A stretch of 32,000 nt of DNA from Trichodesmium erythraeum IMS101 (GCF_000014265.1 NC_008312.1:2790001-2822000); one strand, 5' to 3'; shown: positions 9,459 through 28,279, counted from the first letter of the stretch. The notes: generated from the letters alone by a model not told the origin. A program made the numbers and translations.

Positions 9459-10933
9459 TTTTGAATAGGTAGGGATTTTCCATGGAACGGAACTAAATCT
9501 TAGGGTTCAAAGACATAAGATATCTTTGCTCTTAGTCTATAATTCTTAAAAATATTAAGTAGTTAAACAAAATTAATTACATAATTTTTTCGTAATGCAA
9601 TGAGACAAAAGTTTTCCAGTTGACATAAGCATCTATTCCTAGCTATTCATTTTGAGTAAAACGCCACCAAATTTATCTCAAATTCAACGGTGAAGAATAG
9701 GTAGGCAATTCAAAGATAGTAATTTGCAAAATTGAGCACTCTTCAAGTTAATCAAAAATCCCATCACTGTTATGAATAGATAATTGCTCTCAAACAATTT
9801 CTGTGGGTTGGTTTATATTAGGAAAAAGTTACCTATATAAAAAATAATTACATCAGAATTAATTTTTGCAGTTGAAACATAACTTTCTCTGATTATTTGG
9901 GGAAGAGATTCATCATTCTATTAACATTCAGATCGGTTTATATCTATATGGGGAATTTAAGTATTTCCGGGATACTGCCAGACACTGAGAATCCTAGTAA
10001 TCATACTAAACCATACTTCATCTAAGTAATATAAATTAATTTTTTCCCCAAAAAACTATAATTTTAAATTCTTCTGTTTTATTAGCTTGTTTTATTTATC
10101 TTCTTCACCCATGAGGTTGTATTTCTAAAGCTTTACCCTGATGATTCACTCATCATTCTGAAACTTTTAATAATTCTTGCTAGAGTTTTTTTAAGGTCAC
10201 AATTCTCCAGATTGATACAGTAGTACATCATTAGTTGTTTGTGTAAGTAATTTTGTTTAGTTACTTACTAAACTTTAGTTAGAGATTAGTTAATAAATAT
10301 ATAGCTATTCTATTTTTACATTGTCAAAAATCTAGCAGCTTTTTGGGAATCATGAAGATATAATAGTTTCGGAGTTTATTTCTAGTGTTTTTTATTTTGA
10401 CAACCTGGGGAATTAGATTACTATAATATCTTGATAATATATCAGTTTCAGTAGTGGCTTACTTCAAGAAAAGTACTAAAAAATGACAAAATTAATATTG
10501 GCTCTCTTGGAATTTTTCCTGGATTTTCCCTGACCTGAGTGGAACAAATATAGAAAAATTAATGTGCTGCAACTATTGTTTATTGGTTCTTCGCCGATCC
10601 CGGATCTTAACTAATACCAAACCCGGGTCTAATAGCAGGGTTGTTCCATGACCTAATCCCTGACAGTATTTACCTCTGATGTGTGATGTATATTTAACAG
10701 CTCTGAAGAAACCTGCTCCACATAGAGTTTTACTATTCATCTCTTCTACTTATAATGTTGATCCCATAATGTATTTACCAACGGCTGTAACTTAAAAAAA
10801 ATACTCTCTTACTCTTGGCAGGTTTTGTATCATTTGAGAATTCTATATCAGTTTCGGGAACATAGTAAATTATAAATTTAGGGACGTTCTACAGGAGAAA
10901 TGAAAAAAATATTTGTATAATTTATGAATTATA

Positions 10934-11641
10934 TTAGCAATCAATATAATATTTAGGAATAACTAAAGTTAATAACCAATATAATTTGTACTTAAAAGTG
11001 TTTTTATCTACATTTTTTTCTACAGCTGTAGGTTGTTTCATTACTTGTAATAACGAATTTAAAGCATAATTTTCAGATGAGTTTACTTGCTGATCAAAAA
11101 GAGCAATATTGATTGCTAAAGGCAGAGCAATAGCAGCTACATCTGGCTCTAATTCTTCAACTAATAAATCAATAGACTGAGGAACTCTAACTGCAGAACG
11201 AATTCCTTGCAATATATTTTCATTTAATCCTAACTGCTGTAAACTAGGATATATTTCGTCCCATTTAACTTTCTGATTGGGTTCTCCTGCTTGAATAACG
11301 TAAGCTATCAACCTTTCCAGTTTTCCTTGTTGCTTGGTTGTCATATTTTGGATAGGTTCAGTTTTAGTTAACTCTTGAGAATCATTTTGATTTTTTTCTT
11401 GTTTTATACCACTGACAATTTTTTCCCAATCTTGACCATCACAAGATTCGGGTTTTTCCACAGTTAAAGAAATAGTTATTTTTTTGTCTTGACTAGCATC
11501 TAGCTCAGTTACCTCTGCTCTGACTCCCAAAAAACCTAGCCATTTCGCAATTGTATGAATTAATGTTAGACGGGTTGAGTGACAGTTTGCTAATAACCGA
11601 ACCTGGGTCCGAACCATAGGACGAACTATTTGTGTCAGCAT
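10934..11641 (-). CDS. Hypothetical protein (function unknown)
   Basis: 235-aa ORF uninterrupted in AT-rich DNA, with a plausible two-part layout. The N-terminal part is MLTQIVRPMVRTQVRLLANCHSTRLTLIHTIAKWLGFLGVRAEV. A low-complexity linker follows, then a helical C-terminal part, LERLIAYVIQAGEP...IALPLAINIALFD. I do not recognise a family with confidence. Confidence 0.55.
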   Translation of the reverse strand: MLTQIVRPMVRTQVRLLANCHSTRLTLIHTIAKWLGFLGVRAEVTELDASQDKKITISLTVEKPESCDGQDWEKIVSGIKQEKNQNDSQELTKTEPIQNMTTKQQGKLERLIAYVIQAGEPNQKVKWDEIYPSLQQLGLNENILQGIRSAVRVPQSIDLLVEELEPDVAAIALPLAINIALFDQQVNSSENYALNSLLQVMKQPTAVEKNVDKNTFKYKLYWLLTLVIPKYYIDC

Positions 11642-11679
11642 TAAAATCCACTTACTATCTTAGCTAAAAGTTTACTTTT

Positions 11680-12490
11680 TTTATAGTATAGTCAAGGCTT
11701 TGGTGATAAATAGCAATTTTAGCTACAGATTTTTTTGACTATTGCCTTCAAATTTAGAAATGATGTACTCTATCTCAATTAAATCCATTGGTCTGAAGTT
11801 TAATCCACAAAATGCGCATTTACCTTTTTGTGGTTTCAACAGTGTTGTGACTTCTTTCCTTATGCTCGGGTTTTTGCCAATTCTGCTACTTCAGTCAACC
11901 TAGTTACTATCATGGAGTGATTTATTACTTTTAACTTTGACATACCTGATAATAAGTACCTCTAAGTGTTGACTTAATATTATGTTTGTCTTGGTTAAAT
12001 ATCCAGTTTTGGGTTTATTTCACATTGGGAAAATGCTTTTTCCAGACCGGGGTGTCTGTTTTGTTTGAGTGTTTCCTACTTACCCATAAAGCTAGTCTTT
12101 GACCTAAGAGGTTATCCAGTTTACTAAACACTTTTTTGTCAAATTGCATATATTGACAAGAATTGTGCACCTTGGTTATCAATTTATATTTGAATGGTAT
12201 CTTAAAGAGGTTTTCTGGTTCCCTTATGCTTTTTTTACGACTTTGAAAATGGTTGAATCAGGGTTTTAAACCCTTGTTTGCTTGACTTAACCTAACCTTG
12301 CCTGACTGTAAAATCTAAAAAATTAAATCCATATTCTGATGAGTCAAATTCAGGATGATTCTCTTTATATTCTTCAGTGGGTATGGCCTATTCTGTTTTT
12401 TCCGATTTAAGTTCTAATTCTATGCAGCTTAACCATTACCGTCTCAAGGCTTTTGTTACATTACTACTTTGATATCCTTGTGTAATATTT
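11680..12490 (-). pseudogene. Group II intron-encoded protein remnant (RT C-terminal part, maturase, HNH), degraded
   Basis: Reverse-strand fragments in several frames. WLSCIELELKSEKTE*AIPTEEYKENHPEFDSSEYGFNFLDFTVRQG corresponds to the RT segment L.L..EKT.I.H...GFDFLGF. LLGQRLALWVSRKHSNKTDTPVWKKHFPNVK* corresponds to the maturase L.RW..RRHPNKS..W...KY. TLLKPQKGKCAFCGLNFRPMDLIEIEYIISKFEGNSQKNL corresponds to the HNH Q.GKC..CG......D..EVDHIIP...GG....NLQ. Multiple stops and frameshifts. I could not find intron domain V/VI. Confidence 0.6.
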
Positions 12491-12721
12491 GGGGTATTTA
12501 TAGTTCAGATATTTTAATTCATAATTTAACTTTAGTTAATATATAGTCAAATATCATAATTGATTCATATTTTTTTTTAAGTATCAATTTATTTGTATCA
12601 AACTATACTTTAAATATAAAAAAAAACTTTTTCTACAAAAAGTACACAAAAAACACTTGTAATCTAAAAACGGTGATAAAAATTTAATTAGAGAACTTAA
12701 TACTCACAAAAGTAAAAAACT

Positions 12722-14143
12722 ATGGGACAGCAAAAATTTGGTGTTATCGGTCTAGCTGTAATGGGTGAAAACCTAGCTCTCAATGTAGAACGCAACGGAT
12801 TCCCCATTTCTGTATATAACCGCAGTGACGATAAAACTAAGAAATTTATGGCAGAACGGGCACAAGGAAAAAACGTCCACGCTGCTTATAGTTTAGAAGA
12901 TTTTGTTCAATCCCTAGAAAGACCCCGCAGAATCCTAGTAATGGTAAAAGCAGGAAATCCAGTCGATAAGGTTGTTGAACAACTTAAACCTCTGTTAGAT
13001 AAAGGTGACATGATCATTGACGGTGGTAACTCTCTCTATGAAGATACAGAACGCCGTACTAAGGATTTAGAATCCACTGGATTAGGTTTCATGGGAATGG
13101 GAGTTAGTGGTGGAGAAGAAGGTGCCTTATGGGGTCCTAGTTTAATGCCGGGTGGTACAGAGGCTTCTTACAAAGAATTAGAAGCTATTTTAACTAAAAT
13201 AGCTGCTCAAGTTGATGATGGTCCTTGTGTCGACTACGTTGGTCCTGGAGGTGCTGGTCACTATGTGAAAATGGTACACAACGGCATTGAGTATGGCGAT
13301 ATGCAGTTAATTGCTGAAGCTTATGACTTGCTGAAAAATGCTGTAGGAGTTAGCAACGAACAACTCCATGAAATTTTTGCTGAGTGGAATAAAACTCCAG
13401 AGTTGGAATCTTTCTTAATTGAAATTACAGCTGATATCTTTACTAAGAAAGATACTGAGACTAGCAATCATTTAGTTGACATGATTGTTGATTCTGCTGG
13501 ACAGAAGGGTACAGGCAGATGGACGGTGATTAATGCTTTAGAATTGGGTGTTGCTGTTCCTACTATTACGGCGGCTGTTAATGCTCGTATCATGTCTGGT
13601 ATTAAGGAGGAGCGTGTTGGTGCTGCTAAGGAATTAACTGGTCCGAGTGGTCAGTATGAAGGTGATAAGCAAGCTATGATTAATAAGGTGCGGGATGCCT
13701 TGTATTGTTCTAAGATTTGTTCTTATGCTCAAGGTATGGCTTTGTTGGCTCAGGCGTCTCGACAGTTTGATTATAAGCTGAATTTGGGTGAGTGTGCGCG
13801 AATTTGGAAAGGTGGTTGTATTATTCGGGCTGGGTTTTTGAATAAGATTAAGAAGGCTTTTGATGAAAATCCTGCTCTACCTAATTTATTGTTAGCTCCA
13901 GAGTTTAAGCAGACTATTCTTGATCGCCAGAATGCTTGGCGGGAAGTTGTTGCTTTAGCTGGTAAGTTAGGACTGCCTGTTCCTGCTTTTAGTGCTTCTC
14001 TAGATTATTTTGATAGTTATCGTCGGGTAACTTTGCCTCAAAACTTGACTCAGGCTCAACGGGATTATTTCGGCGCTCACACTTATGAGCGTATTGATAA
14101 GTCTCGTGGTCAGTTCTTCCATACTGAGTGGCCTACTAAGTAA
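12722..14143 (+). CDS. gnd: 6-phosphogluconate dehydrogenase, decarboxylating
   Basis: 473 aa. Contains FGVIGLAVMGENLALN (Rossmann), IIDGGNSLYEDT, GMGVSGGEEGA, HYVKMVHNGIEYGDMQLIAEAY and AQRDYFGAHTYERID. Confidence 0.95.
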   Translation: MGQQKFGVIGLAVMGENLALNVERNGFPISVYNRSDDKTKKFMAERAQGKNVHAAYSLEDFVQSLERPRRILVMVKAGNPVDKVVEQLKPLLDKGDMIIDGGNSLYEDTERRTKDLESTGLGFMGMGVSGGEEGALWGPSLMPGGTEASYKELEAILTKIAAQVDDGPCVDYVGPGGAGHYVKMVHNGIEYGDMQLIAEAYDLLKNAVGVSNEQLHEIFAEWNKTPELESFLIEITADIFTKKDTETSNHLVDMIVDSAGQKGTGRWTVINALELGVAVPTITAAVNARIMSGIKEERVGAAKELTGPSGQYEGDKQAMINKVRDALYCSKICSYAQGMALLAQASRQFDYKLNLGECARIWKGGCIIRAGFLNKIKKAFDENPALPNLLLAPEFKQTILDRQNAWREVVALAGKLGLPVPAFSASLDYFDSYRRVTLPQNLTQAQRDYFGAHTYERIDKSRGQFFHTEWPTK

Positions 14144-14986
14144 TTTAGGACTACCCGCAAACCGAAACTAGAAACCTGGTTTTTCAGAGATGTCTATTGT
14201 TAAAACATAAGATTTTTTGTGAAAACTGGGTTTCTTTGGGTAATATCATGTCCGTTGGTATTGGAAGGTGTCAAAGCCGGGGAGATATCTACTATATTTA
14301 AGGTTTTTTTCTCTTAATGCTTTTTCCTTTCCTTTGCACTGAGAATACTGATGCTGCTAACGGACATGATTAAAGTCCGATAATTATTTCTGTTTAAAGG
14401 TTAGGCGATCGCTCTTTGGTTAAATAGTGGCGATCGTCTTGAGCAATAACTAATTAGACTGATTTTGAGTAGCTTGTTCCCCTTGCTCAAGGGTTAATTC
14501 TAACTGTCGTGCTATCTCTTTTTCTGTTAACCTTGTTTCTTAGAATATAGGCACTCCTTGTAAAATTTTTCCAGGGTTGGAGATTGAACAATGAGTTGAA
14601 AATAAATATCAGGCATCTCTAAAAAAAATACTCTGTAAAATATTTTGTCTGTTTTCATCTAAAAATATTTTTGTAAAACTTTTAATTAAATCACGGTGAA
14701 TAACTAGCTATTAAGGTTTGAAGGTAATTTTAATTTTGTGAAAAATTTGTCGATTATTGAGAGTTTTAAACGTCGACAAAAAATTTACTTATTGGTTAGT
14801 TATTAATTGATGAATTTAAGTTATTAGTCGTCAAAAAAATTACTTATCAGAATATTTACTGGTATACTATCTTCTTCAGTTTAAGTAGGATAGAAAAAAG
14901 AGTAGATCATTTGTTTTTTTCCAGACTTACTTAACTAACTGAAAAAAACAAAGATTGATCTAAAAAATATTTCTAGGGAAGCAATT

Positions 14987-17900
14987 GTGGATCCTATATC
15001 TGAAGAATTAAACAACTTTAGACAAGGTTTTACTTTTACAGGTACAGGCGAAGTGTTAGCCGAGGTAGATAAATTCGGTGATGAGCTGCGATTTTCTAGT
15101 GGTCTTGAATTAAGTCCAGCTAGCGAGGAACTAAAAATTGAAAATATAGATACATCTAATGCTGATGAAAATTTCTTGTTGCCCAAGAGTAATTTGGGAA
15201 ATTTAGATTTAAATATAGAGGACTCAGAAGATAGGACTTTAAAGACTGAAACAGACCCACTGATAGGACAAGACAATGATCCCGTTCAAGAAGTCGACTC
15301 TTTAATTAGTGGGACATCTGATCGGGTAAACAATATACAAACTAGGGCTGCTAAAAAGCGGGATAAAGCAGGTAATAGTCGAGGAAAAGCCCACAACTTA
15401 GGAGTTTTAGAGGATGATCAAAAGTTACAGGAGTTTGTCGGTAAGTCTGACCGGAAGGACTTTTATAAGTTTAAGGTTAAGAACAAGACGGATATAGATA
15501 TTGAGTTGGGCGGCCTCAGTGGAAATGCGGATTTGTATTTGCTGAATAATAGGGGGAAAGTTATTGAGAAGTCTAATAAGGGTGGTAAAAGGGCAGAGGA
15601 TATTGAGCGGACTTTGAACCCAGGGACTTATTATGTGAGGGTGCAGTCAAAAGGTAGAGCAAATGCTAATTACAACTTGAGTTTGGATAGTGAGTTGTCA
15701 GATCTGGCGGGTAATAGTTTGAAGAGAGCTCACAACTTGGGAGTGTTGAAGGATGATCAAAAGTTCCAGGAGTTTGTCGGTAAGTCTGACCGAAAGGATA
15801 TTTATAAATTTAAGGTTAAAGACAAGACGGATGTAGATATTGAGTTAGGCGGCCTCAGTGGAAATGCGGATTTGTATTTGCTGAATAATAGGGGGAAAGT
15901 TATTGAGAAGTCTACTAAGGGTGGCAAAAGGGTAGAGGACGTTGACCGGACTTTAAACCCAGGGACTTATTATGTAAGGGTTCAGTCGAGGAATAAGAGG
16001 GTTAATGCTGATTATAGTTTGAGTTTAGATACAAAGAGCCCACATTTGCATATTCACGAACCTATAATTATAAACGCCATCGACACTGCTGCAGATCAAC
16101 CCGGTACATTAGATGACTCTTCAACAATTGATTTGATGGTTGTTTACACTTCAGAAGCTCGCCGAGCGGAGGGGGGTATAGATGCTATCAAAGATCTAAT
16201 TGAGTTTGCTGTTGATGACGCCAATGAAGCCTTTGCTAAAAGCGGAGTTCAATCCCAGTTACGGCTAGTCCATACAGCAGAGGTTAACTATACCGAGTCG
16301 GGTAAAAGTATTAAGGAACTTGAACGGCTAAAAAACGATTCAGACGGCTATATGGATGAAGTTCACGAACTTCGTAATGATTATGGTGCTGACATTGTAA
16401 GTTTATTTGTCAGCAGTCTTGACGATGCTGGTGGTATAGCTTATCCAATGGGCACGCCAGCGTATCAATTTGAAAGTCACGCTTTCAACGTTGTCACCAA
16501 TTATAATGCCAAAACTCGTCACACTCTTGCTCATGAAATAGGACATAATCTAGGATTAGCCCATGATCGCGATAATGCTGAAGGTCAAGGTTCTTTTCCT
16601 TACGGCTATGGTTACACTACTCCCAGTGGCGCGGGAACCATAATGTCTTATGCTAGGAACAGACTTCCATACTTCTCTAACCCTGCTATTAGCTACAATG
16701 GTGAAGCACTTGGTCAAACCAACCGTGAGAACTCTGCTTTAGCTATTAACAAAGTGGCTCAATATGCTGCTAACTGGCGACCTTCTGGTGGTACAATTAA
16801 ATCCCAAGACTCTATCACTCTCAACTCCCCCAACGGAGGTAATACCTTAGAACAGGGTTCTAATTATACTATTACTTGGAATGACAATATTAGCGAAAAC
16901 ATCAAACTGGAACTATACAAAGGAGGTTCTTTCTACAGTACCATTAACAGTTCTACTACCAGCGATGGCAGTTACAGTTGGAGCATACCCACATCCATAA
17001 CCAGTGGCAGCGACTACAAGTTAAAAATTAGTAGTGTTAGTGATAGTAGCTTGTACGACTACAGCGATAGCAACTTCACTATTGAACCAGAAGAGTTCAT
17101 CACGCTCACAGCTCCCAACGGAGGTAACAGTCTAGAACCAGGGAGAAGCTACTACATCGACTGGGAGGATAATATAAGCGAGAATGTGAAACTAGAACTG
17201 TACAAAGGAGGTTCTTTCTACAGTACTATTAATAGCTCTACCTCCAGTGATGGTCGTTACAATATCTGGACAGTACCCACATCCATAACCAGTGGCAGCG
17301 ACTACAAGATTAAAATCAGTAGCGTTAGTGATAGTGGCTTGTACGACTACAGCGATAGCAACTTCACTATTGAACCAGAGGAGTTCATCACGGTCACAGC
17401 TCCCAACGGAGGTAACAGTCTAGAACCAGGAATAAGCTACTACCTTGACTGGGAGGATAATATAGGCGAGAATGTCAAAATAGAACTGTACAAAGGAGGT
17501 TCTTTCTACAGTACCATTGACAGCTCTACCTCCAGTGATGGTCGTCACATCTGGGGAGTACCCACATCCATAACCAGTGGCAGCGACTACAAGATTAAAA
17601 TCACTAGTGTTAGTGATAGTGGCTTGTACGACTACAGCGATAGCAACTTCACTATTGAACCAGAAGAGTTCATCACGCTCACATCTCCCAACGGAGGTAA
17701 CAGTCTAGAACCAGGGAGAAGCTACTACATCGACTGGGAGGATAATATAAGCGAGAATGTGAAACTAGAACTGTACAAAGGAGGTTCTTTCTACAGTACT
17801 ATTAATAGCTCTACCTCCAGTGATGGTCGTTACAATATCTGGACAGTACCCACATCCATAAGCAGTGGCAGCGACTACAAGATTAAAATCAGTAGCGTTA

Positions 17901-20900
17901 GTGATAGTAGCTTGTACGACTACAGCGATAGCAACTTCACTATTGAACCAGAAGAGTTCATCACGCTCACAGCTCCCAACGGAGGTAACAGTCTAGAACC
18001 AGGGAGAAGCTACTACATCGACTGGGAGGATAATATAAGCGAGAATGTGAAACTAGAACTGTACAAAGGAGGTTCTTTCTACAGTACTATTAATAGCTCT
18101 ACCTCCAGTGATGGTCGTTACAATATCTGGACAGTACCCACATCCATAACCAGTGGCAGCGACTACAAGATTAAAATCAGTAGCGTTAGTGATAGTGGCT
18201 TGTACGACTACAGCGATAGCAACTTCACTATTGAACCAGAAGAGTTCATCACGCTCACAGCTCCCAACGGAGGTAACAGTCTAGAACCAGGGAGAAGCTA
18301 CTACATCGACTGGGAGGATAATATAAGCGAGAATGTGAAACTAGAACTGTACAAAGGAGGTTCTTTCTACAGTACTATTAATAGCTCTACCTCCAGTGAT
18401 GGTCGTTACAATATCTGGACAGTACCCACATCCATAACCAGTGGCAGCGACTACAAGATTAAAATCAGTAGCGTTAGTGATAGTGGCTTGTACGACTACA
18501 GCGATAGCAACTTCACTATTGAACCAGAAGAGTTCATCACGCTCACAGCTCCCAACGGAGGTAACAGTCTAGAACCAGGGAGAAGCTACTACATCGACTG
18601 GGAGGATAATATAAGCGAGAATGTGAAACTAGAACTGTACAAAGGAGGTTCTTTCTACAGTACTATTAATAGCTCTACCTCCAGTGATGGTCGTTACAAT
18701 ATCTGGACAGTACCCACATCCATAACCAGTGGCAGCGACTACAAGATTAAAATCAGTAGCGTTAGTGATAGTGGCTTGTACGACTACAGCGATAGCAACT
18801 TCACTATTGAACCAGAAGAGTTCATCACGCTCACATCTCCCAACGGAGGTAACAGTCTAGAACCAGGGAGAAGCTACTACATCGACTGGGAGGATAATAT
18901 AAGCGAGAATGTGAAACTAGAACTGTACAAAGGAGGTTCTTTCTACAGTACTATTAATAGCTCTACCTCCAGTGATGGTCGTTACAATATCTGGACAGTA
19001 CCCACATCCATAACCAGTGGCAGCGACTACAAGATTAAAATCAGTAGCGTTAGTGATAGTGGCTTGTACGACTACAGCGATAGCAACTTCACTATTGAAC
19101 CAGAAGAGTTCATCACGCTCACAGCTCCCAACGGAGGTAACAGTCTAGAACCAGGGAGAAGCTACTACATCGACTGGGAGGATAATATAAGCGAGAATGT
19201 GAAACTAGAACTGTACAAAGGAGGTTCTTTCTACAGTACTATTAATAGCTCTACCTCCAGTGATGGTCGTTACAATATCTGGACAGTACCCACATCCATA
19301 ACCAGTGGCAGCGACTACAAGATTAAAATCAGTAGCGTTAGTGATAGTGGCTTGTACGACTACAGCGATAGCAACTTCACTATTGAACCAGAAGAGTTCA
19401 TCACGCTCACAGCTCCCAACGGAGGTAACAGTCTAGAACCAGGGAGAAGCTACTACATCGACTGGGAGGATAATATAAGCGAGAATGTGAAACTAGAACT
19501 GTACAAAGGAGGTTCTTTCTACAGTACTATTAATAGCTCTACCTCCAGTGATGGTCGTTACAATATCTGGACAGTACCCACATCCATAACCAGTGGCAGC
19601 GACTACAAGATTAAAATCAGTAGCGTTAGTGATAGTGGCTTGTACGACTACAGCGATAGCAACTTCACTATTGAACCAGAAGAGTTCATCACGCTCACAG
19701 CTCCCAACGGAGGTAACAGTCTAGAACCAGGGAGAAGCTACTACATCGACTGGGAGGATAATATAAGCGAGAATGTGAAACTAGAACTGTACAAAGGAGG
19801 TTCTTTCTACAGTACTATTAATAGCTCTACCTCCAGTGATGGTCGTTACAATATCTGGACAGTACCCACATCCATAACCAGTGGCAGCGACTACAAGATT
19901 AAAATCAGTAGCGTTAGTGATAGTGGCTTGTACGACTACAGCGATAGCAACTTCACTATTGAACCAGAGGAGTTCATCACGGTCACAGCTCCCAACGGAG
20001 GTAACAGTCTAGAACCAGGAATAAGCTACTACCTTGACTGGGAGGATAATATAGGCGAGAATGTCAAAATAGAACTGTACAAAGGAGGTTCTTTCTACAG
20101 TACCATTGACAGCTCTACCTCCAGTGATGGTCGTCACATCTGGGGAGTACCCACATCCATAACCAGTGGCAGCGACTACAAGATTAAAATCAGTAGCGTT
20201 AGTGATAGTGGCTTGTACGACTACAGCGATAGCAACTTCACTATTGAACCAGAGGAGTTCATCACGGTCACAGCTCCCAACGGAGGTAACAGTCTAGAAC
20301 CAGGAATAAGCTACTACCTTGACTGGGAGGATAATATAGGCGAGAATGTCAAAATAGAACTGTACAAAGGAGGTTCTTTCTACAGTACCATTGACAGCTC
20401 TACCTCCAGTGATGGTCGTCACATCTGGGGAGTACCCACATCCATAACCAGTGGCAGCGACTACAAGATTAAAATCAGTAGCGTTAGTGATAGTGGCTTG
20501 TACGACTACAGCGATAGCAACTTCACTATTGAACCAGAGGAGTTCATCACGGTCACAGCTCCCAACGGAGGTAACAGTCTAGAACCAGGAATAAGCTACT
20601 ACCTTGACTGGGAGGATAATATAGGCGAGAATGTGAAACTAGAACTGTACAAAGGAGGTTCTTTCTACAGTACCATTAACAGTTCTACCTCCAGTGATGG
20701 TCGTTACACCTGGCTAGTACCCACATCCATAACCAGTGGCAGCGACTACAAGATTAAAATCACTAGTGTTAGTGATAGTGGCTTGTACGACTACAGCGAT
20801 AGCAACTTCACTATTGAAGCAGATGATTCAAACTCTGATAAATACTACTTTACCTACTTTTATGATCTAGGCGACTCCTATGATGGTTTCTTGTACGAAA

Positions 20901-21175
20901 AAGCAGGAAGATATTCTTTAGATGATTCATTATACAGCAGTAATGGTCGCTACCAGATATGGGATATTGAGAGTGGCGTGGGTAGTAAAAATGATATTGG
21001 CGATGTTTACGTTTATAGCTACTACGATGAGAATTATACTGGTGAAACTTACGAACCATCCTGGTGGACTTGGGGACTTACGGCAGGTGAAAATGGCTTA
21101 GGTAGTGAGTCTGACACAATATCGGGTTTCTATGGTGAAGAATATTTTGACCCCTATAATGAAGCTGACGGTTAA
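14987..21175 (+). CDS. Giant modular secreted/surface-type zinc metalloprotease: acidic N-term, 2x PPC domain, reprolysin-like metzincin domain, 14 tandem Ig-like repeats, Tyr/Asp-rich tail
   Basis: 2062-codon ORF uninterrupted in stop-rich AT DNA. The start is GTG at 14987, with AGGGAA 8-13 nt upstream, an in-frame TAA at 14936 and no ATG in between. Zinc site HEIGHNLGLAHD lies at 16532-16567 and the Met-turn GTIMSY at 16643. Both PPC copies carry the hallmarks D.YKFKV...GNADLYLLN...GTYYVRV. See the sub-features below. Confidence 0.85.
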   Translation: MDPISEELNNFRQGFTFTGTGEVLAEVDKFGDELRFSSGLELSPASEELKIENIDTSNADENFLLPKSNLGNLDLNIEDSEDRTLKTETDPLIGQDNDPVQEVDSLISGTSDRVNNIQTRAAKKRDKAGNSRGKAHNLGVLEDDQKLQEFVGKSDRKDFYKFKVKNKTDIDIELGGLSGNADLYLLNNRGKVIEKSNKGGKRAEDIERTLNPGTYYVRVQSKGRANANYNLSLDSELSDLAGNSLKRAHNLGVLKDDQKFQEFVGKSDRKDIYKFKVKDKTDVDIELGGLSGNADLYLLNNRGKVIEKSTKGGKRVEDVDRTLNPGTYYVRVQSRNKRVNADYSLSLDTKSPHLHIHEPIIINAIDTAADQPGTLDDSSTIDLMVVYTSEARRAEGGIDAIKDLIEFAVDDANEAFAKSGVQSQLRLVHTAEVNYTESGKSIKELERLKNDSDGYMDEVHELRNDYGADIVSLFVSSLDDAGGIAYPMGTPAYQFESHAFNVVTNYNAKTRHTLAHEIGHNLGLAHDRDNAEGQGSFPYGYGYTTPSGAGTIMSYARNRLPYFSNPAISYNGEALGQTNRENSALAINKVAQYAANWRPSGGTIKSQDSITLNSPNGGNTLEQGSNYTITWNDNISENIKLELYKGGSFYSTINSSTTSDGSYSWSIPTSITSGSDYKLKISSVSDSSLYDYSDSNFTIEPEEFITLTAPNGGNSLEPGRSYYIDWEDNISENVKLELYKGGSFYSTINSSTSSDGRYNIWTVPTSITSGSDYKIKISSVSDSGLYDYSDSNFTIEPEEFITVTAPNGGNSLEPGISYYLDWEDNIGENVKIELYKGGSFYSTIDSSTSSDGRHIWGVPTSITSGSDYKIKITSVSDSGLYDYSDSNFTIEPEEFITLTSPNGGNSLEPGRSYYIDWEDNISENVKLELYKGGSFYSTINSSTSSDGRYNIWTVPTSISSGSDYKIKISSVSDSSLYDYSDSNFTIEPEEFITLTAPNGGNSLEPGRSYYIDWEDNISENVKLELYKGGSFYSTINSSTSSDGRYNIWTVPTSITSGSDYKIKISSVSDSGLYDYSDSNFTIEPEEFITLTAPNGGNSLEPGRSYYIDWEDNISENVKLELYKGGSFYSTINSSTSSDGRYNIWTVPTSITSGSDYKIKISSVSDSGLYDYSDSNFTIEPEEFITLTAPNGGNSLEPGRSYYIDWEDNISENVKLELYKGGSFYSTINSSTSSDGRYNIWTVPTSITSGSDYKIKISSVSDSGLYDYSDSNFTIEPEEFITLTSPNGGNSLEPGRSYYIDWEDNISENVKLELYKGGSFYSTINSSTSSDGRYNIWTVPTSITSGSDYKIKISSVSDSGLYDYSDSNFTIEPEEFITLTAPNGGNSLEPGRSYYIDWEDNISENVKLELYKGGSFYSTINSSTSSDGRYNIWTVPTSITSGSDYKIKISSVSDSGLYDYSDSNFTIEPEEFITLTAPNGGNSLEPGRSYYIDWEDNISENVKLELYKGGSFYSTINSSTSSDGRYNIWTVPTSITSGSDYKIKISSVSDSGLYDYSDSNFTIEPEEFITLTAPNGGNSLEPGRSYYIDWEDNISENVKLELYKGGSFYSTINSSTSSDGRYNIWTVPTSITSGSDYKIKISSVSDSGLYDYSDSNFTIEPEEFITVTAPNGGNSLEPGISYYLDWEDNIGENVKIELYKGGSFYSTIDSSTSSDGRHIWGVPTSITSGSDYKIKISSVSDSGLYDYSDSNFTIEPEEFITVTAPNGGNSLEPGISYYLDWEDNIGENVKIELYKGGSFYSTIDSSTSSDGRHIWGVPTSITSGSDYKIKISSVSDSGLYDYSDSNFTIEPEEFITVTAPNGGNSLEPGISYYLDWEDNIGENVKLELYKGGSFYSTINSSTSSDGRYTWLVPTSITSGSDYKIKITSVSDSGLYDYSDSNFTIEADDSNSDKYYFTYFYDLGDSYDGFLYEKAGRYSLDDSLYSSNGRYQIWDIESGVGSKNDIGDVYVYSYYDENYTGETYEPSWWTWGLTAGENGLGSESDTISGFYGEEYFDPYNEADG
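15371..16040 (+). repeat. Tandem duplication (339 nt / 113 aa) encoding two PPC (bacterial pre-peptidase C-terminal-type) domains
   Basis: Copy 1 starts at 15371: GNSRGKAHNLGVLEDDQKLQEFVGKSDRKDFYKFKVKNKTDIDIELGGLSGNADLYLLNNRGKVIEKSNKGGKRAEDIERTLNPGTYYVRVQS. Copy 2 starts at 15710: GNSLKRAHNLGVLKDDQKFQEFVGKSDRKDIYKFKVKDKTDVDIELGGLSGNADLYLLNNRGKVIEKSTKGGKRVEDVDRTLNPGTYYVRVQS. Confidence 0.8.
16125..16785 (+). other. Metzincin catalytic domain (reprolysin/M12B-like) of the giant ORF
   Basis: IDLMVVYTSEARR...HTLAHEIGHNLGLAHDRDNAEG...GAGTIMSYARN. This gives HExxHxxGxxHD plus a downstream Met-turn, the metzincin signature. The subfamily assignment is from motif memory only. Confidence 0.75.
16814..20818 (+). 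repeat. 14 in-frame tandem repeats of 285/288 nt (95/96 aa), Ig-like Kre9/KNH (Ser-Thr-rich GPI-anchored family)-type domains
   Basis: Unit boundaries, taken at the gaaccaga(a/g)gagttc motif, fall at 17084, 17372, 17657, 17945, 18233, 18521, 18809, 19097, 19385, 19673, 19961, 20246, 20531 and 20816. The type A unit (96 aa) is ITLTAPNGGNSLEPGRSYYIDWEDNISENVKLELYKGGSFYSTINSSTSSDGRYNIWTVPTSITSGSDYKIKISSVSDSGLYDYSDSNFTIEPEEF. The type B unit (95 aa) carries V, I, L, G, I, D substitutions and RHIWGV. Confidence 0.9.
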
Positions 21176-21276
21176 ATTTAGAGATTAATTTGTCTTGTGC
21201 TCAATTCAGAGTAACATTATTCGGCGTTGTTGATGGGCGACTATGATTTTTTTAGCAGGGGTCATAGCCTAATAAA

Positions 21277-21320
21277 GCGATCGCTCCTGCCAAAACCAAT
21301 CATGTTGAAGGAGCGATCGC
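21277..21320. terminator. HIP1-based hairpin between convergent genes (candidate bidirectional terminator)
   Basis: gcgatcgctcct (21277-21288) and aggagcgatcgc (21309-21320) are perfect reverse complements, 12 bp and GC-rich, with a 20-nt loop. The hairpin lies 100 nt past the giant ORF stop and 180 nt past the stop of the minus-strand protease gene. The flanking U-tracts are weak. Confidence 0.45.
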
Positions 21321-21498
21321 CTTTATCCTTTAAGTGCTATATTTGAAGCATACAGGCTACACTGAAAGTATAAAATATAGGTTCTAGTAAGCTTAAAAAG
21401 CTTATTTTTGTTATAAACTATGAATAATTTATTGTTCTTAAAACCAGGAAATTTAGTTGCTCAACTCGGTTTCTGTGTAAGTTATGACTATATTTTTT

Positions 21499-22203
21499 TT
21501 AGCCTAGTCTAGTACTTTGCAAATATATCCGCTTCAGAGTATTAATATCCCTAGATGAAATAGGAGGAGGTTCTGCCACCTGAGAATAATACATAACATC
21601 AGTTTTCTCAGGACTATGACCCCAAATACCCAAAGCATGACCAAACTCATGACGAGCAGCAGCAGGCAGATATTTACCTACTTGCATAGGACTCAACCAA
21701 ATCACAAAATTATGAGATAAAATACCATTCTCATCTTCAGATAACTGATAGCGAGCTTCTGCCGAACGCGCTCTTAAATTTCCTGCTCTCAGAGGAGGTC
21801 GCTTGTTAAAAATTTTAATATCAGCAACTTCTGGGCTATCTACCACTTGCAAAGGTAAATAAATATTCCATTCCCAAATAGCATCTACTACAGTCTTAAC
21901 CCATTGACGAGAGCGAGACTCATCATTATCAGAAGATTCGACATAAACCTTGATCGGAAATTGCGACCAAATTAGATAACCTACATCCTGAACTTCAATT
22001 TGATCAAAATAATCACCACTACCACTAGGGTCTTGCCATTGTGCCAAAGTTTCTGGTAGAGGATAAACTTTCAGAGAAGGTAAATTTTGAGGAGTAACTG
22101 CTGTAGTCGGAATTGAAAACAAAAAATAGAAAGCTACCATCCAAATAGCAAAACCGAAAAAAAAGAACCGTAAATAAACCGATGCTATCTTGTTAGTAAA
22201 CAT
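21499..22203 (-). CDS. Small membrane-anchored zinc metalloprotease, matrixin-like metzincin
   Basis: 234 aa. N-terminal hydrophobic anchor: VYLRFFFFGFAIWMVAFYFLFSIP. Catalytic motif: AARHEFGHALGIWGHSPEKTDVMYY (HExxHxxG...H plus a Met-containing turn). Confidence 0.75.
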   Translation of the reverse strand: MFTNKIASVYLRFFFFGFAIWMVAFYFLFSIPTTAVTPQNLPSLKVYPLPETLAQWQDPSGSGDYFDQIEVQDVGYLIWSQFPIKVYVESSDNDESRSRQWVKTVVDAIWEWNIYLPLQVVDSPEVADIKIFNKRPPLRAGNLRARSAEARYQLSEDENGILSHNFVIWLSPMQVGKYLPAAARHEFGHALGIWGHSPEKTDVMYYSQVAEPPPISSRDINTLKRIYLQSTRLG

Positions 22204-22423
22204 TATACCAAGCTTGAGAAGTGTTTGTTAAAGAACTACTCAGAAGTCAGCACTTAGCCATCAACTGTTTTGAACAAAATACGTCTACGCCAGTACCGGG
22301 TTTCTGGGTTCCTCTGTGTAAGTCCTGAAAATATTACATTCCTCTTCAAGTCTAAGAGCTTCAAGAGGGATACCGAGATATTTGGGAAGTCTATTAGCCA
22401 GCGTCAGCTTAACGCCACTTTTA

Positions 22424-22463
22424 AAGGTTGGCAGTATTAATTAAAAATTCAACTACCAACCTT
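22424..22463 (-). terminator. Hairpin about 40 nt downstream of the glgB stop
   Basis: aaggttggcagt (22424-22435) pairs with actaccaacctt (22452-22463). This gives 11 Watson-Crick pairs plus one G-U in the minus-strand RNA, with a 16-nt loop. There is no strong U-run. Confidence 0.35.
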
Positions 22464-22501
22464 CTCAATTTTACCCGAGTTTTTATTGAGCGAGTTGATC
22501 C

Positions 22502-24841
22502 TTAAGATGCATTTTTAGCTTTAGCTTCCACAGTTTCAACATCTTCAGATTCTTGAATCATTGCTATCGTTTTCTTCTTGTCTAACTGAAACACTACAAC
22601 ACCTAAAGGAGGCAAACATAAATCTAAAGACTGTTGATAATCATGGAAAAACCAATCATCAGTCCACTTACCACCCAAATTACCCATATTGCTGCCACCA
22701 TAGTTACCAGCATCGCTATTAAATATTTCAGTATAAAACCCTGGTTCAGGTACACCGACGCGATAATGACTATGAGGTTGAGGAGTAAAATTACAAACCG
22801 TTACCACAAAATCCTTCCCATCTTTAGCGCGACGAATAAACGACACCACACTATGATTATTATCATTGCAATCTATCCATTCAAATCCTCCCTCATTACA
22901 ATCTTGTTCATACAAAGCAGGTTCAGAACAATAGAGATGATTCAGATCCCGGAAAAATCGTTTCATTCCTTGATGAGCATCAAATTCGAGCAAATGCCAT
23001 TCTAAATCACCCCAAACATCCCATTCACCCCACTGAGGAAGCTCCATCCCCATAAACATAGTCTTCTTACCAGGATGAGTAAACATATAAGCAAACAAGG
23101 CCCGGACATTAGCAAATTTCTGCCAATTATCTCCAGGCATCTTACCCAAAATACTGCTCTTGCAATGTACCACTTCATCGTGAGACAGAGCCAACATATA
23201 GTTCTCAGTATGGTGATACCAAATACTGAAAGTAACATTGTTTTGGTGGAACTGTCGGAACCAAGGGTCCATCTCAAAATAGTCCAGCATATCGTGCATC
23301 CAACCCATGTTCCACTTAAAGTTGAAACCCAAACCACCAACATAAGTAGGCCAAGTCACCATAGGCCAAGAAGTAGATTCCTCTGCAATAGAGAGAACAC
23401 CAGGATAGTAACTAAAAAGCAAATGATTAACTTGACGGAGGAAATCAGCAGCTTCAATATATTCTACACCTCCGTATTTGTTAGCAACCCATTCACCATC
23501 AGGTCTCATATAGTTGTGGTAGACCATAGAAGCAACAGCATCTACTCTGACACCATCAATATGATATTTGTCAAACCAGAAAAGTGCATTTGCCGCTAGA
23601 AAGTTACGAACTTCATTACGACCATAGTCAAATACTAAAGTACCCCATTGCTTGTGTTCACCTTTGCGGGGATCTGGATGTTCATAGAGGTGAGTGCCGT
23701 CAAAGAAAGCCAAACCATGTCCATCTTTAGGAAAATGTCCGGGTACCCAGTCTACAATTACCCCAATACCATTTTCATGACATTTATCCACGAAATACAT
23801 AAAGTCTTGGGCACTACCATAGCGAGAGGTAGGGGCAAAAAATCCTGTAACCTGATAACCCCAGGAACCATCAAAAGGATGTTCTGCTACAGGTAACATT
23901 TCAATGTGGGTATAGCCCAAATCTTTAACGTAAGAAACTAGACGATCTGCTAATTCGCGGTAGGTAAGAAAACGGGCATCTGGCCTGAGTTCCGAGACTT
24001 GAACTACAGGCTCAGTTTCCCCATTAGGTAGTTTAGCTGGTTCATGAGCAGAAGCATGAATCCAAGAACCAAAATGGCATTCATAGACGGAAATAGGTTG
24101 AGTGAGTGGGTCAGTATGGCGACGTTTCTCCATCCATTCTTGGTCATTCCAAGTATAAGAGTCTAAGTCAACAACAATGGAAGCAGTTTTGGGTCTTACT
24201 TCTTGTTGATATCCATAGGGGTCGCTTTTTTCATAGATGTGTCCTTCCCAGTTTTTAACCTCATACTTATAGCTTTCTCCAGGGCCAATATCGGGAATAA
24301 ATAATTCCCAAACTCCTGTATGTCCTTTGCGCATTTGGTGTTTACGACCATCCCAATAGTTGAAGTTCCCTAAAATTGAAACATTACGAGCATTGGGTGC
24401 CCAAACAGCAAAGTAGACTCCTTTAATTCCATCAACTTCGGTAATATGCGCTCCTAGTTTTTCGTAGATGCGGTGATGGTTTCCTTCTCCAAATAGTTGA
24501 AGGTCGAATTCTGTGAGTTTTGCAGAGCGAAAAGCGTAGGGGTCATGGATAACTCGTTCGTGTTCTCCTTCTTTGATTTTAAGTTGATAGTTGGCCAGTT
24601 TTGGGGTGTTGATGACACATTCAAAAAAATGAGGGTTATGGACTGACTGCATTGGGTACTCTTTGCGGTCTATCGGAGAAATGACAGAGACAGCTTCAGC
24701 ACTTGGTTGGTATGCTCGGATCACTGTCATAGTTTTGCCACTGAGTTCTATCTGGTGAGAACCCAATACTTGAAAGGGGTCGTGATGGTGATTCCAAGCT
24801 ATTTGGTTAACTTGATCAGCAGATATTGTCATTTTTGTCAA
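22502..24841 (-). CDS. glgB: 1,4-alpha-glucan (glycogen) branching enzyme
   Basis: 779 aa. Has the N-terminal CBM48-type region and GH13 motifs: GYTHIEMLPVAEHP, GIGVIVDWVPGHF, DGVRVDAVASMVY, SIAEESTSWP and ALSHDEVVH. Confidence 0.95.
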   Translation of the reverse strand: MTKMTISADQVNQIAWNHHHDPFQVLGSHQIELSGKTMTVIRAYQPSAEAVSVISPIDRKEYPMQSVHNPHFFECVINTPKLANYQLKIKEGEHERVIHDPYAFRSAKLTEFDLQLFGEGNHHRIYEKLGAHITEVDGIKGVYFAVWAPNARNVSILGNFNYWDGRKHQMRKGHTGVWELFIPDIGPGESYKYEVKNWEGHIYEKSDPYGYQQEVRPKTASIVVDLDSYTWNDQEWMEKRRHTDPLTQPISVYECHFGSWIHASAHEPAKLPNGETEPVVQVSELRPDARFLTYRELADRLVSYVKDLGYTHIEMLPVAEHPFDGSWGYQVTGFFAPTSRYGSAQDFMYFVDKCHENGIGVIVDWVPGHFPKDGHGLAFFDGTHLYEHPDPRKGEHKQWGTLVFDYGRNEVRNFLAANALFWFDKYHIDGVRVDAVASMVYHNYMRPDGEWVANKYGGVEYIEAADFLRQVNHLLFSYYPGVLSIAEESTSWPMVTWPTYVGGLGFNFKWNMGWMHDMLDYFEMDPWFRQFHQNNVTFSIWYHHTENYMLALSHDEVVHCKSSILGKMPGDNWQKFANVRALFAYMFTHPGKKTMFMGMELPQWGEWDVWGDLEWHLLEFDAHQGMKRFFRDLNHLYCSEPALYEQDCNEGGFEWIDCNDNNHSVVSFIRRAKDGKDFVVTVCNFTPQPHSHYRVGVPEPGFYTEIFNSDAGNYGGSNMGNLGGKWTDDWFFHDYQQSLDLCLPPLGVVVFQLDKKKTIAMIQESEDVETVEAKAKNAS

Positions 24842-24905
24842 TATATATATTTGTTAACAATTAATTAAGAATGCTACCATAATTGGAAAGATATACTATT
24901 ATATT

Positions 24906-24924
24906 ATGTCAACTAGGTTGACAT
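24906..24924. promoter_or_regulatory. 19-bp perfect palindrome 65 bp upstream of the glgB start
   Basis: atgtcaac tag gttgacat has 8-bp perfect arms and a 3-nt centre. The related gttgac(g/a)tcc motif recurs at about 25195 and 25255, inside the tnpB-remnant 3' region. Confidence 0.35.
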
Positions 24925-25189
24925 CCTCCCCAACTGCACTCCTATGAAATAAGCTATTTCTTAATCCATTTTTTTTAGTAGTTTGGACGCATAAATTTTT
25001 TGACTATGTACGGACGCTCTTATGCAAAGTCCCTACCGTAGCAAAAGTTTTAATCCTATTACTTATAATACCTACTAAATTATCAGTTACAGATAAGCTT
25101 TCTTGATTGATTTCTACTACAAGACTCTGAAAATAGCTATTAGTAAATACCTATTCGCAAAATTTTTGGTTACTTTTGCTGATGATGGA

Positions 25190-26408
25190 ATGAATGTTGA
25201 CGTCCTTTCCGGCTTGAAGGCGCGGAGATTTCTACTAAGCTTTAGATCCTTAGCTGGTTGACGTTTTATCGGCTATTGATCTACCCCTATTGCTCCCCTC
25301 GGACCAGGGAGATGCTGGTGGCTTAAGCTTCCCTCCACGTCCATTTTTTATCTGGTGACTGCCCGCCCGCGAATAATAATATATTTATTACTGCGTTTTG
25401 CAAAAAGGTCCTGTTTAGCTCCACAGTTGAGACATTCCTATTCTCTCACTGAAAGGTCTATTTTGCCTGCGGCTGAAACCATAGTATGAGGATATTTTGG
25501 ATGCTGGATCCCTGAGACTAATTACTCTGAAATCACGATCATATTTGTCGCTTTTCCTTTTAGAAGTGTTCTAAATTTTCTCCAACCTTAAATATAATAT
25601 TGCTCTGGATCATTTGCAGTTTTTTACCATATTAGAAACATTTAAATCTGCTAAAACTATTACTTGGTTTTTGTCTTTTATTTTAGGAGATAATTTATGC
25701 AGAAAATCTATCTTAGTATCTTTCAATTTTCTATGAAATTTATCAACTCTAACCTGTACTTTTTCATATTGTTTAGATGTTTGAGTTTTCCTGCGATAAT
25801 GACTTACTTAATTTACCCCTTTTGAAGCTCCTCTAAAAAAGACTATTTTTTATCAGTTTTTTAACGGTTTAGGACCATATTTTTTTTGAATATAGTCGCC
25901 CTAGAAGGGTGAAGCTTTAGAGCAAATTTTTTAGTAATTATCTTAAAAAAAATAATTTTAATTTTTCCAATTTTTACTAAATAAACTTTAGTTAACCAAC
26001 TTTAAAAACACTTTTTTTAAATCTTGTAAATTGTTTTAGCTTTCTACTTTTCAACTTAGGGGTTTTTATGAATTTGCATTTTATTTACCCCTTTTATTGA
26101 TTTTAAAAAGTTTTTATATACCTGGTTTCAATCATTTAAATACTGCTGCAATGAGATACAAGAAATCTCTAACAACTATCCTCTATCTTCAGTTTTTTTT
26201 GCTTGAGTAATTAGCTATTTTGACAAATTGTGATAGACATTATTTTTTCTATCCTAGTTTTTATTTTTCCTGGTAGAAGCCTAAGCTATTATTCCAGATT
26301 AAGTGAAAACACTCAAACAATTGTATGAGTTTTGTCGTTTTATATTTATGTTTTTTGTGTGCACTTCATATTTATACCTAGCCTTCATATTTTACTTGGT
26401 TTTAGCAT
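25190..26408 (-). pseudogene. tnpB: Degraded tnpB (IS200/IS605-family, IS1341-like RNA-guided nuclease gene), no tnpA
   Basis: Reverse-strand fragments, listed from the N-terminal end. MLKPSKI*RL at 26408 matches MLKAYKYRL. LLKQKKTEDRG*LLEISCISLQQYL matches L..LKK....WLKEVSS.ALQQ. SHYRRKTQTSKQYEKVQVRVDKFHRKLKDTKIDFLHKLSPKIKDKNQVIVLADLNVSNMVKNCK* is the RuvC-II region (IVLEDLNV.GM.KN). HPKYPHTMVSAAGKIDLSVRE*ECLNCG is the Zn-ribbon region (PSS..CS.CG...LSVREW.C..CG). AVINIL matches NAAINI. The C-terminal NLRAFKPERTS matches EA.AF..G. Many stops and frameshifts. Confidence 0.8.
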
Positions 26409-28064: not shown

Positions 28065-28279
28065 AGTTGAACTTAGTACTTAACTATCAATACTATCAAT
28101 ATATATGTTGGAGTTGTTGGGAATTAAACAAAAAAATGGCTAAAATCTAAAATAAGTCACGGTTCATATCATAGTGTTTTCAGGTATAAAATACTGAAAA
28201 CTTTATAGAGTAACTTTTTGAGCATTTTAAATTTTTCCAGACCTAACAACTCTATTACCTAAAACTTGGGTTTAGAGAA

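Follow-up and report, generated by a model that had tools for sequence, protein, structure and literature searches.

Can a gene exchange the catalytic class of the protease that it encodes and keep everything around it? The question is raised by Tery_1835, a 6.2-kb open reading frame (ORF) in the 32,000-nucleotide stretch of Trichodesmium erythraeum IMS101 DNA analysed here (GCF_000014265.1 NC_008312.1:2790001-2822000; 'the window', with positions counted from its first letter). In IMS101 the gene encodes a predicted zinc metallopeptidase of the metzincin type, set between two PPC domains and a long array of KNH repeats, and in strains with nearly identical flanking DNA the same place is taken by a subtilisin-type (S8) serine peptidase. 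On balance we read Tery_1835 as probably a secreted protease on a stalk of variable length, with a head that recombination can exchange. The comparisons below indicate that the chassis is conserved while the catalytic head behaves as a cassette. The gene and its parts are as follows.

14987..21175, + strand: complete coding sequence of Tery_1835 (ABG51091.1 / WP_011611466.1 / UniProt Q114I3), 2062 aa, GTG start, uninterrupted ORF
14987..15391, + strand: N-terminal leaderless module (N-module), aa 1-135, acidic, without a hydrophobic core and without a Pfam match
15407..15670, + strand: PPC domain 1, aa 141-228 (Pfam PPC, PF04151)
15746..16016, + strand: PPC domain 2, aa 254-343 (Pfam PPC), its last strand forming the left edge of the putative cassette
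16017..16813, + strand: putative exchangeable head cassette, aa 344-609, metzincin in IMS101 (BLAST and base-level comparison with S8 loci)
16097..16786, + strand: predicted adamalysin/M72-like metzincin catalytic domain, aa 371-600 (Pfam, AF2 model and Foldseek)
16532-16567, + strand: zinc motif HEIGHNLGLAHD, aa 516-527, of the HExxHxxGxxH(D) type
16634-16651, + strand: Met-turn GTIMSY, aa 550-555 (by motif position)
16814..20833, + strand: fourteen tandem KNH (Kre9_KNH, PF10342) Ig-like repeats, aa 610-1949 (Pfam, 385 bits)
20834..21172, + strand: Tyr/Asp/Gly-rich YD module, aa 1950-2062 (113 aa), no Pfam family, defined by its own profile

Tery_1835 was identified by exact-sequence look-up, with Trichodesmium erythraeum IMS101 as the source, and a published table places it, at equal length, at genome positions 2804987-2811175 (PMC12090762 Table S1/S2). 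Its database name, 'peptidyl-Asp metallopeptidase, MEROPS family M72', is a GenBank/UniProt annotation only. A first-pass annotation made from the DNA alone had proposed a long ORF at 14987-21175, and this is real: 2,062 codons run without a stop from a GTG that lines up with the ATG start of Okeania orthologues, the nearest upstream in-frame stop lying at 14936. From N to C terminus the product comprises a leaderless module of ~135 aa, two PPC domains, the metzincin, fourteen KNH repeats and a 113-aa Tyr/Asp tail. The same annotation had called this order correctly throughout (PPC-PPC-metzincin-14 Ig-like-Tyr/Asp tail); the Pfam search recovered the PPC, Reprolysin and Kre9_KNH matches, each above its gathering cut-off.

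The head is matched by Reprolysin_5 (95.4 bits, cut-off 27), Reprolysin_4 (76.9, cut-off 22) and Reprolysin_3 (52.5, cut-off 22.4) over aa 378-575. In a 30-sequence alignment the H, E, H and H of the zinc motif are invariant and the Met of the Met-turn nearly so. An AlphaFold2 (AF2) model built on a 30-sequence alignment adopts a metzincin fold with a predicted local distance difference test score (pLDDT) of 88-97 over aa 369-599. Its best Foldseek match in the PDB is Acinetobacter CpaA (6o38, E 5e-13), followed by ADAM8, snake-venom P-I metalloproteinases and ADAMTS at target-normalised template modelling (TM) scores of 0.6-0.7; a search of PDB sequences with the head found nothing beyond a marginal match to a serralysin motif. 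The reprolysin-like core with the Met-turn GTIMSY, noticed earlier by eye, is thereby supported in both motif and modelled fold, and profiles and model together indicate that Tery_1835 carries an intact adamalysin/M72-type zinc endopeptidase domain. The best NCBIfam match is Mep72 (NF052434, aa 380-683), and because its 134 bits fall far under the equivalog cut-off of 645 we regard Tery_1835 as a relative of Mep72 and not a member. The conserved cysteines of most homologues are lost in the Trichodesmium head.

Among Trichodesmium assemblies the gene order around the locus is kept, running ylqD, pdhE2, adh, orf235, gnd, then Tery_1835 or its counterpart, then an M10 peptidase gene and glgB. The counterpart carries one of two heads.

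Syntenic loci with the metzincin head: IMS101, L081, L085, T. erythraeum GBRTRLIN201 (P0180), St4_bin8_1 (L086, P0181) and St5_bin8 (P0182)
Syntenic loci with the S8 head: L082 (P0161), MAG_R01 (L083), St2_bin6 (L084), MAG_R03 (L003), ALOHA_ZT_67 (P0150) and T. erythraeum isolate 21-75 (L088)

In the S8 alternative ~1.25 kb (positions 11047-12298 in L082) encoding a prodomain and an S8 domain stands in place of the metzincin cassette, and the prodomain, of the Fervidolysin type, sits between PPC2 and the S8 catalytic domain. BLAST identity to the window stops at 16032 in the four S8 loci compared (L082, L083, L084 and L003); at base level the break falls at ~16016, in the last strand of PPC2, and homology returns at KNH unit 1, at 16814. 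L084, which has the S8 head, and L086, which has the metzincin (M12) head, are 99.70% identical over the 8,902 nt leading to the breakpoint and unrelated beyond it. Over adh to gnd, identity to IMS101 is 99.6% for L082 (S8), 98.7% for L086 (M12), 98.6% for L084 (S8), 98.0% for L083 (S8) and 90.9% for L003 (S8), and the head type thus appears to cut across the phylogeny of the flanks. Between clades the heads themselves are 96.9% (M12) and ~98.3% (S8) identical. PPC2 and the KNH repeats would serve as homology arms for exchange of the head between alleles or paralogues.

L084 and L086 differ at eight positions in the last 250 nt before the breakpoint and at none in the preceding 750 nt. Such a rise in divergence was considered as a mark of balancing selection and rejected, because the same rise is seen between alleles with the same head; it shows only that the N-module/PPC region evolves fast.

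The pattern would also arise if the heads were not alleles, each genome holding both a metzincin and a subtilisin gene with near-identical PPC and KNH parts and assemblers joining gnd to one of them. We think this unlikely, although there is something to be said for it. Okeania has M12 and S8 heads as tandem paralogues and not as alleles, and tandem M12 and PPC-S8 paralogues are present in both Okeania KiyG1 and a tar-biofilm metagenome-assembled genome (MAG). The S8-bearing contigs are all short-read and end or collapse within the KNH array, and could thereby conceal a tandem M12 and S8 arrangement; in L082 the sequence past the right end of the gene is mosaic. A homologue search with the S8 head returned only subtilases of 47-59% identity and missed the known allele P0003, and therefore does not exclude an S8 copy elsewhere in IMS101. 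On the other side, between gnd and the M10 gene the finished IMS101 sequence has a metzincin gene and no other. No genome belongs to both 90% clusters, that of the M12 allele and that of the S8 allele: IMS101 is outside the S8 cluster and the S8-type genomes are outside the M12 cluster. Contigs pass unbroken through ~1 kb of shared N-module/PPC sequence into a single head, as in L084 and L086 with their 99.7% identical flanks, and the tandem-paralogue explanation is weakened because an intragenomic repeat of 1 kb would normally break contigs. Isolate 21-75 also joins gnd to an S8-type junction. An exchange of heads between alleles is therefore the explanation that we carry forward, and near-identical strains that differ only in protease catalytic class would make a natural experiment for the function of the head and the selection upon it, open to strain comparison and to metagenome read-mapping at this locus.

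The metagenome contig L082 was looked at further in its own right. Its positions 13825-23501 are 99.4-99.7% identical to IMS101 through the tail and the spacer, falling beyond the spacer to 94% in the M10 gene and 91.5% in glgB, and a NACHT/NB-ARC gene lies where IMS101 has a PBP gene. Either natural recombination or a chimeric assembly lies behind this contig.

The chassis is shared more widely than the locus. Homologues in Trichodesmium, Okeania and relatives follow the order N-module, PPC domain(s), peptidase head, KNH repeats and often a YD tail, with five unrelated peptidase classes in the head position.

M12/M72 head: Tery_1835, P0001 and P0002
S8 subtilisin head: P0003, P0010, P0015 and P0066
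C1 papain head with a lectin-like domain: P0005, P0006, P0012 and P0013
M23 head with LysM: P0028
M10/serralysin-like head: P0004

The architecture described from the IMS101 gene is thus conserved as a family in Trichodesmium and Okeania. Synteny of the Trichodesmium locus with Okeania was considered and rejected, the Okeania orthologue lying after ppc and being flanked by DUF2887. In Okeania KiyG1 DUF2887 genes stand on both sides of the metzincin orthologue (L002 6474-7208 and 12109-12762), and the tar-biofilm MAG has one, upstream (L001 8697-9485); DUF2887 might conceivably have a part in shuffling the cassettes. In both genomes the metzincin gene is followed by a gene with four PPC domains and an S8 domain (as two ORFs) and by a gene with three PPC domains and a head of unknown type. 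In the tar-biofilm orthologue P0002 two KNH repeats are followed by a fused M10-like domain whose HExxH is not intact.

The N-module is common to paralogues bearing M12, S8, C1 and M23 heads, spans ~110-135 aa among homologues and has conserved motifs, DPL(I/T)G, (V)D(S/P)L(I/T)G and AGNSRxKA. The PPC profile (PF04151) scores 77.1 bits against a cut-off of 25.9, in two copies with Pfam matches at aa 141-228 and 254-337; a PDB sequence search with the PPC region gave no match. As in the classical PPC-bearing secreted peptidases of the PF04151 description, the domain scores above the gathering threshold and is probably removed at maturation. Unlike in those enzymes, both copies lie N-terminal to the catalytic domain, and even to the prodomain in the S8 allele, following a leaderless module of 135 aa. 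The paralogues and many S8 proteins of cyanobacteria likewise have PPC upstream of the head, and in numerous proteins of cyanobacteria a PPC cassette stands on the N-terminal side of an S8, C1, M23, M10, calpain or M12 head; Fischerella P0087 is one example of an N-terminal PPC array before an S8 or calpain head. Because N-terminal PPC is so widespread, a PPC domain before the protease is the norm in the lineage of Trichodesmium. The earlier remark that the domain order is atypical accordingly stands against the Pfam description of PPC and falls within this lineage, where the chassis recurs. Because it is upstream of the S8 prodomain, the N-module/PPC part falls in what is normally removed at maturation.

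As to export, the first-pass annotation had seen no RTX, PEP-CTERM, S-layer homology (SLH), transmembrane or lipobox feature, and profile and hydropathy scans of Tery_1835 agree, a signal peptide and a C-terminal type IX secretion system (T9SS) signal also being among the features looked for and not found. No hydrophobic segment is present, the maximum Kyte-Doolittle mean over 19 residues being 1.06, and a Pfam search gave no HemolysinCabind (RTX GGxGxD) match. TIGR04183 (Por_Secre_tail) does match with 37 bits (cut-off 23), at aa 288-337; Tery_1835 was rejected as a T9SS cargo since this match is not at the extreme C-terminus, and because it lies inside PPC2 it reflects the related folds of the PPC domain and the sorting domains of T9SS. 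A double-glycine leader of the PCAT type at the N-terminus was also rejected: in the aligned N-termini no GG, GA or GS cleavage motif stands at the hydrophobic spacing required, and IMS101 lacks a Gly there. An extracellular character fits the absence of Cys from the whole protein, its strong acidity (net charge of -117 in the repeat region) and its PPC and KNH domain types.

The stalk is built of KNH units of 285 or 288 bp (95 or 96 aa), all in frame; over the array Tandem Repeats Finder (TRF) gave a period of 288 bp, 13.8 copies and 97% matches. Thirteen of the fourteen units are at least 90% identical in DNA, unit 1 being ~20% different from the others. Units 5, 6, 7, 9 and 10 do not differ at a single base; the same holds for the pair of units 2 and 11 and for the pair 12 and 13, so the array has been expanded or homogenised very recently, by unequal recombination. 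The ~1340 aa of near-identical repeats counted in the first-pass annotation correspond to the fourteen units at aa 610-1949 (1,340 aa), and an AF2 model of one unit is an Ig-like beta-sandwich (pLDDT 75-90), with generic Foldseek matches only in the PDB.

An array of this kind invites the suspicion that the long ORF is an artefact, a chimera or an artificial expansion of repeats. Early IMS101 drafts do split the gene and order its units differently (P0183 and P0178), and all short-read assemblies gap the array or collapse it to 1-3 units. The independent short-read scaffold L081 (ENA ERZ23497920) is nevertheless 100% identical to window positions 7181-16948 and 99.9% identical to 20501-31175, with a 100-N gap in place of the array, and contig L085 reproduces both gene ends with the array collapsed to three units. 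The ends of the ORF, the head, the junction of head and repeat 1, and the tail are verified by a second assembly, leaving only the copy number between 16948 and 20501 without a second support. Multi-unit arrays are themselves real, the MAG_R01 fragment P0168 having more than six non-identical KNH units. An artefact is thus very improbable. The count of fourteen rests on the finished genome, because the other assemblies gap or collapse the array, and the way in which short-read Trichodesmium MAGs systematically break or collapse this gene should serve as a warning.

For the C-terminal YD module no Pfam match was found even at E<=10. Out of 1.84 billion representatives, a profile built for it matched 277 at E<=1e-3, of which 41 also passed E<=1e-30; sources include Microcystis, Leptolyngbya, Methylumidiphilus and Gallionella. 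The modules are often in tandem, with up to 16 copies in some proteins. Most of the seven YD proteins checked have no significant Pfam domain and one has RTX and cadherin-like repeats; the distant YD-module protein P0322 bears RTX repeats. In Okeania P0005 the tail is conserved to the last residue, and in P0004 and P0008 the module is internal, between PPC and head. The tail was also considered as a diverged KNH domain, and this was rejected (hhalign probability 0.2%), weak phmmer cross-matches being compositional. Because it belongs to a repeat family, occurs in internal copies and is unrelated to KNH, we take the YD module to be an unannotated extracellular domain and not a terminal sorting peptide.

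The search also brought up a cluster around P0321, from Microcystis aeruginosa MAGs, with proteins of 1,700-2,000 aa made largely of tandem YD modules. IMG names these proteins 'pimeloyl-ACP methyl ester carboxylesterase', and fragments named as PPC-domain and S8 proteins share the 90% cluster of P0321. Proteins of this type make up an unannotated repeat-protein family in bloom-forming cyanobacteria.

Taken together, these parts suggest how Tery_1835 could work. The protein would be exported by some route, with the N-module/PPC part acting before maturation in export, folding or latency and being removed on activation, as its place upstream of an autocleaved prodomain in the S8 allele would imply. 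The mature enzyme, with its N-terminus predicted near aa 340-370, would then consist of head, stalk and tail. If each Ig-like domain contributes ~4 nm, the acidic, Ser/Thr-rich rod would be ~50-60 nm long and could hold the protease away from a surface or matrix component bound by the YD module. How far the enzyme reaches would depend on the number of repeats, by analogy with Periscope Proteins. That it is an enzyme of the filament surface or colony matrix, as first proposed from the sequence, would fit its composition and domain types. Three more unusual features had escaped the first-pass annotation: the two alternative heads at one locus, the very recent amplification of the stalk DNA and the membership of the tail in an unannotated domain family.

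Besides the contig ends, the S8 search and the Okeania paralogues already discussed, several points weigh against this reading. Export is putative, because no known signal was found in the protein and none of the neighbouring genes belongs to a secretion system. Orthologues P0001 and P0002 have no YD tail, and the AF2 model of the tail (from a 7-sequence alignment) reaches a pLDDT of only 30-50, which makes an anchoring role a guess. The repeat number has no confirmation from any second assembly. Expression is low, Tery_1835 having 7-22 counts per million (CPM) in IMS101 RNA-seq (PMC12090762 Table S2), and its peptides have no entry in two IMS101 proteome supplements.

Low expression and the missing peptides would equally suit the view that the gene is a decaying or silent relic and that its repeats were expanded by neutral slippage, without function as a stalk. 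Trichodesmium is rich in pseudogenes, and decay is evident at this locus. In isolate 21-75 and the Tara contig L087, with flanks that match IMS101 at 99.4% identity, two in-frame stops disrupt the S8 allele and its catalytic domain has been deleted. In both L087 (6720-6911) and L088 the KNH array of this allele is split by an insertion sequence (IS)-like element that encodes a zinc-finger peptide (CPSCNSVFSRQEW...HKCLDCGRQFVE). A 7-nt indel, common to St2_bin6 (L084 7850-8029) and St4_bin8_1 (L086 9850-10029), makes the first 59 codons a separate ORF (P0179), and in MAG_R01 (L083) the N-terminus is replaced, with no homology to window positions 14962-15081; the extreme N-terminus is thus not uniformly conserved. 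Yet a stop-free ORF of 6,189 nt with an intact catalytic motif and in-frame units of 285/288 bp is unexpected under neutral decay. Heads from different clades are still 96.9% identical and retain the motifs, and transcripts are detectable, with a weak response to iron (HFe vs MFe log2 fold change 1.1, adjusted P 0.049; PMC12090762 Table S2). We judge a relic decidedly unlikely. Of the expression evidence that the first-pass annotation had named as a check, transcripts are present and peptides are absent from the two supplements. Allele swaps, identical units and decayed alleles together mark a locus in rapid turnover, whose cassette is exchanged, whose array expands and whose alleles can become pseudogenes.

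The protein could also be mainly a fibrillar adhesin or matrix scaffold, in which KNH and YD bind polysaccharide or particles and the head serves self-processing or release. In its stalk of near-identical repeats and its terminal module the protein is like fibrillar adhesins and Periscope Proteins, and long YD arrays free of any enzyme are found in Microcystis and Leptolyngbya proteins. Mep72 autoprocesses, and alginate stabilises it through its carbohydrate-binding domains (PMC4334185); the Ig-like repeats of CpaA resemble glycan-binding domains (PMC7542363). Against a scaffold, no recognisable adhesive domain is present, and one position of the chassis has taken up full-size peptidases of five classes, which points to selection for the proteolysis of external targets. 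We hold it to be unlikely, and a stalk-mounted protease remains the reading that we prefer.

Known systems share parts of this design. Mep72 (PA2783) of Pseudomonas aeruginosa is a biofilm-secreted metzincin that has a Sec signal, leaves the cell through the type II secretion system (T2SS), carries two carbohydrate-binding modules (CBMs) and is transcribed together with an inhibitor, BamI; outside the cell it associates with the matrix, and autoprocessing frees its head (PMC4334185). Both proteins have an adamalysin-like metzincin head followed by beta-sandwich domains, those of Mep72 being of the carbohydrate-binding type. Unlike Mep72, Tery_1835 has no signal peptide, has N-terminal PPC domains, has fourteen KNH repeats instead of CBMs and ends in a YD tail, and the gene upstream is gnd and not an inhibitor. 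CpaA, the Acinetobacter M72 O-glycoprotease (PDB 6o38) and the top structural match to the modelled head, likewise joins a metzincin to tandem Ig-like repeats, which in CpaA are like glycan-binding domains (PMC7542363). The two are only 17% identical in sequence, however. The four repeats of CpaA wrap a dedicated T2SS chaperone, CpaB, whereas the Tery_1835 locus has no chaperone gene, and CpaA has neither PPC domains nor a stalk array.

The array itself is closest in form to the Periscope Proteins SasG, Rib, Sgo_0707 and CdrA, for which variation in repeat length between strains is defining (PMC8201768). As in these, a long tandem array of folded domains with near-identical DNA, unassemblable with short reads, lies between an N-proximal functional domain and the C-terminal end, a likeness drawn from the array of one genome, all other assemblies gapping or collapsing it. 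Unlike in these, an enzyme is projected instead of a ligand-binding domain, and the host is a marine cyanobacterium; no known wall or membrane anchor motif was found in Tery_1835 at the end of the stalk distal to the head. In its exchange of heads the gene invites comparison with a further class. Polymorphic toxins and MARTX effectors have a conserved delivery scaffold and cassettes, exchanged by recombination, that differ among close strains. Tery_1835 has a similar scaffold and cassette; it differs in that its variable module is internal and a housekeeping-type peptidase, with no immunity gene downstream.

Metzincins with Ig-like repeats (CpaA and Mep72), PPC domains and identical-repeat stalks are therefore already known. 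In the literature searched we found no description of Tery_1835, Q114I3, ABG51091 or a Trichodesmium pre-peptidase, of the full domain combination, of the N-terminal PPC/leaderless cassette, of the YD domain, or of a metallo-to-serine protease swap at one syntenic locus among near-identical strains. A wider reading is a serious possibility that falls well short of probable: a chassis-and-cassette system of surface proteases in Trichodesmium and relatives such as Okeania, in which the N-module and PPC would form a new export or latency signal, a KNH stalk adjustable in length and a binding YD module would form a constant scaffold for delivery, and metallo and serine heads would be swapped by homologous recombination and kept as a population polymorphism. 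If true, the polymorphism might, for example, allow escape from class-specific protease inhibitors of epibionts or grazers, or match the enzyme to its substrates. Two unannotated modules, the N-module without a leader and the YD domain, turn up repeatedly in filamentous and colonial cyanobacteria, in many of them, and may mark a route of export or anchoring so far overlooked. Trichodesmium supplies a large share of the new nitrogen in tropical oceans, and the surface chemistry of its colonies governs dust capture, interactions with epibionts and colony formation. To our knowledge almost nothing has been established about its surface enzymes and their export, and Tery_1835 is a defined candidate for a stalk-mounted extracellular protease.

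The neighbours of Tery_1835 are housekeeping genes (acyl-CoA synthetase-like, ylqD, PDH E2, ADH, gnd, glgB and PBP), with no secretion system, inhibitor or chaperone gene among them. The M10 gene encodes a protein with a strongly hydrophobic N-terminus that is conserved in Trichodesmium, Okeania, Hydrocoleum and Dapis; it lies downstream of both allele types, across a 323-nt spacer without an ORF. Promoter and terminator scans around Tery_1835 gave nothing above chance, and Rfam and tRNA scans of the window had no match. The HIP1 pair between convergent genes could form a hairpin, although a simple terminator scan made no call. Other features of the window are listed here.

21499-22203, - strand: M10/matrixin-like zinc peptidase ABG51092.1, 234 aa, with HEFGHALGIWGH, convergent with Tery_1835
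21270-21325 and 14400-14450: HIP1 (GCGATCGC) palindromes, two copies ~35 nt apart between convergent genes
10934-11641, - strand: 235-aa ORF without a Pfam match, called in 7/7 gene-annotated Trichodesmium loci
27450-28064, + strand: 204-aa ORF without a Pfam match, with a 190-aa counterpart in 3 loci extending past glgB
24842-27449, 9459-10933 and 11642-12721: long AT-rich stretches of 29-34% GC between housekeeping genes, with no ORF of at least 90 aa

Non-coding DNA is abundant in Trichodesmium, and these AT-rich, ORF-free stretches fit that picture.

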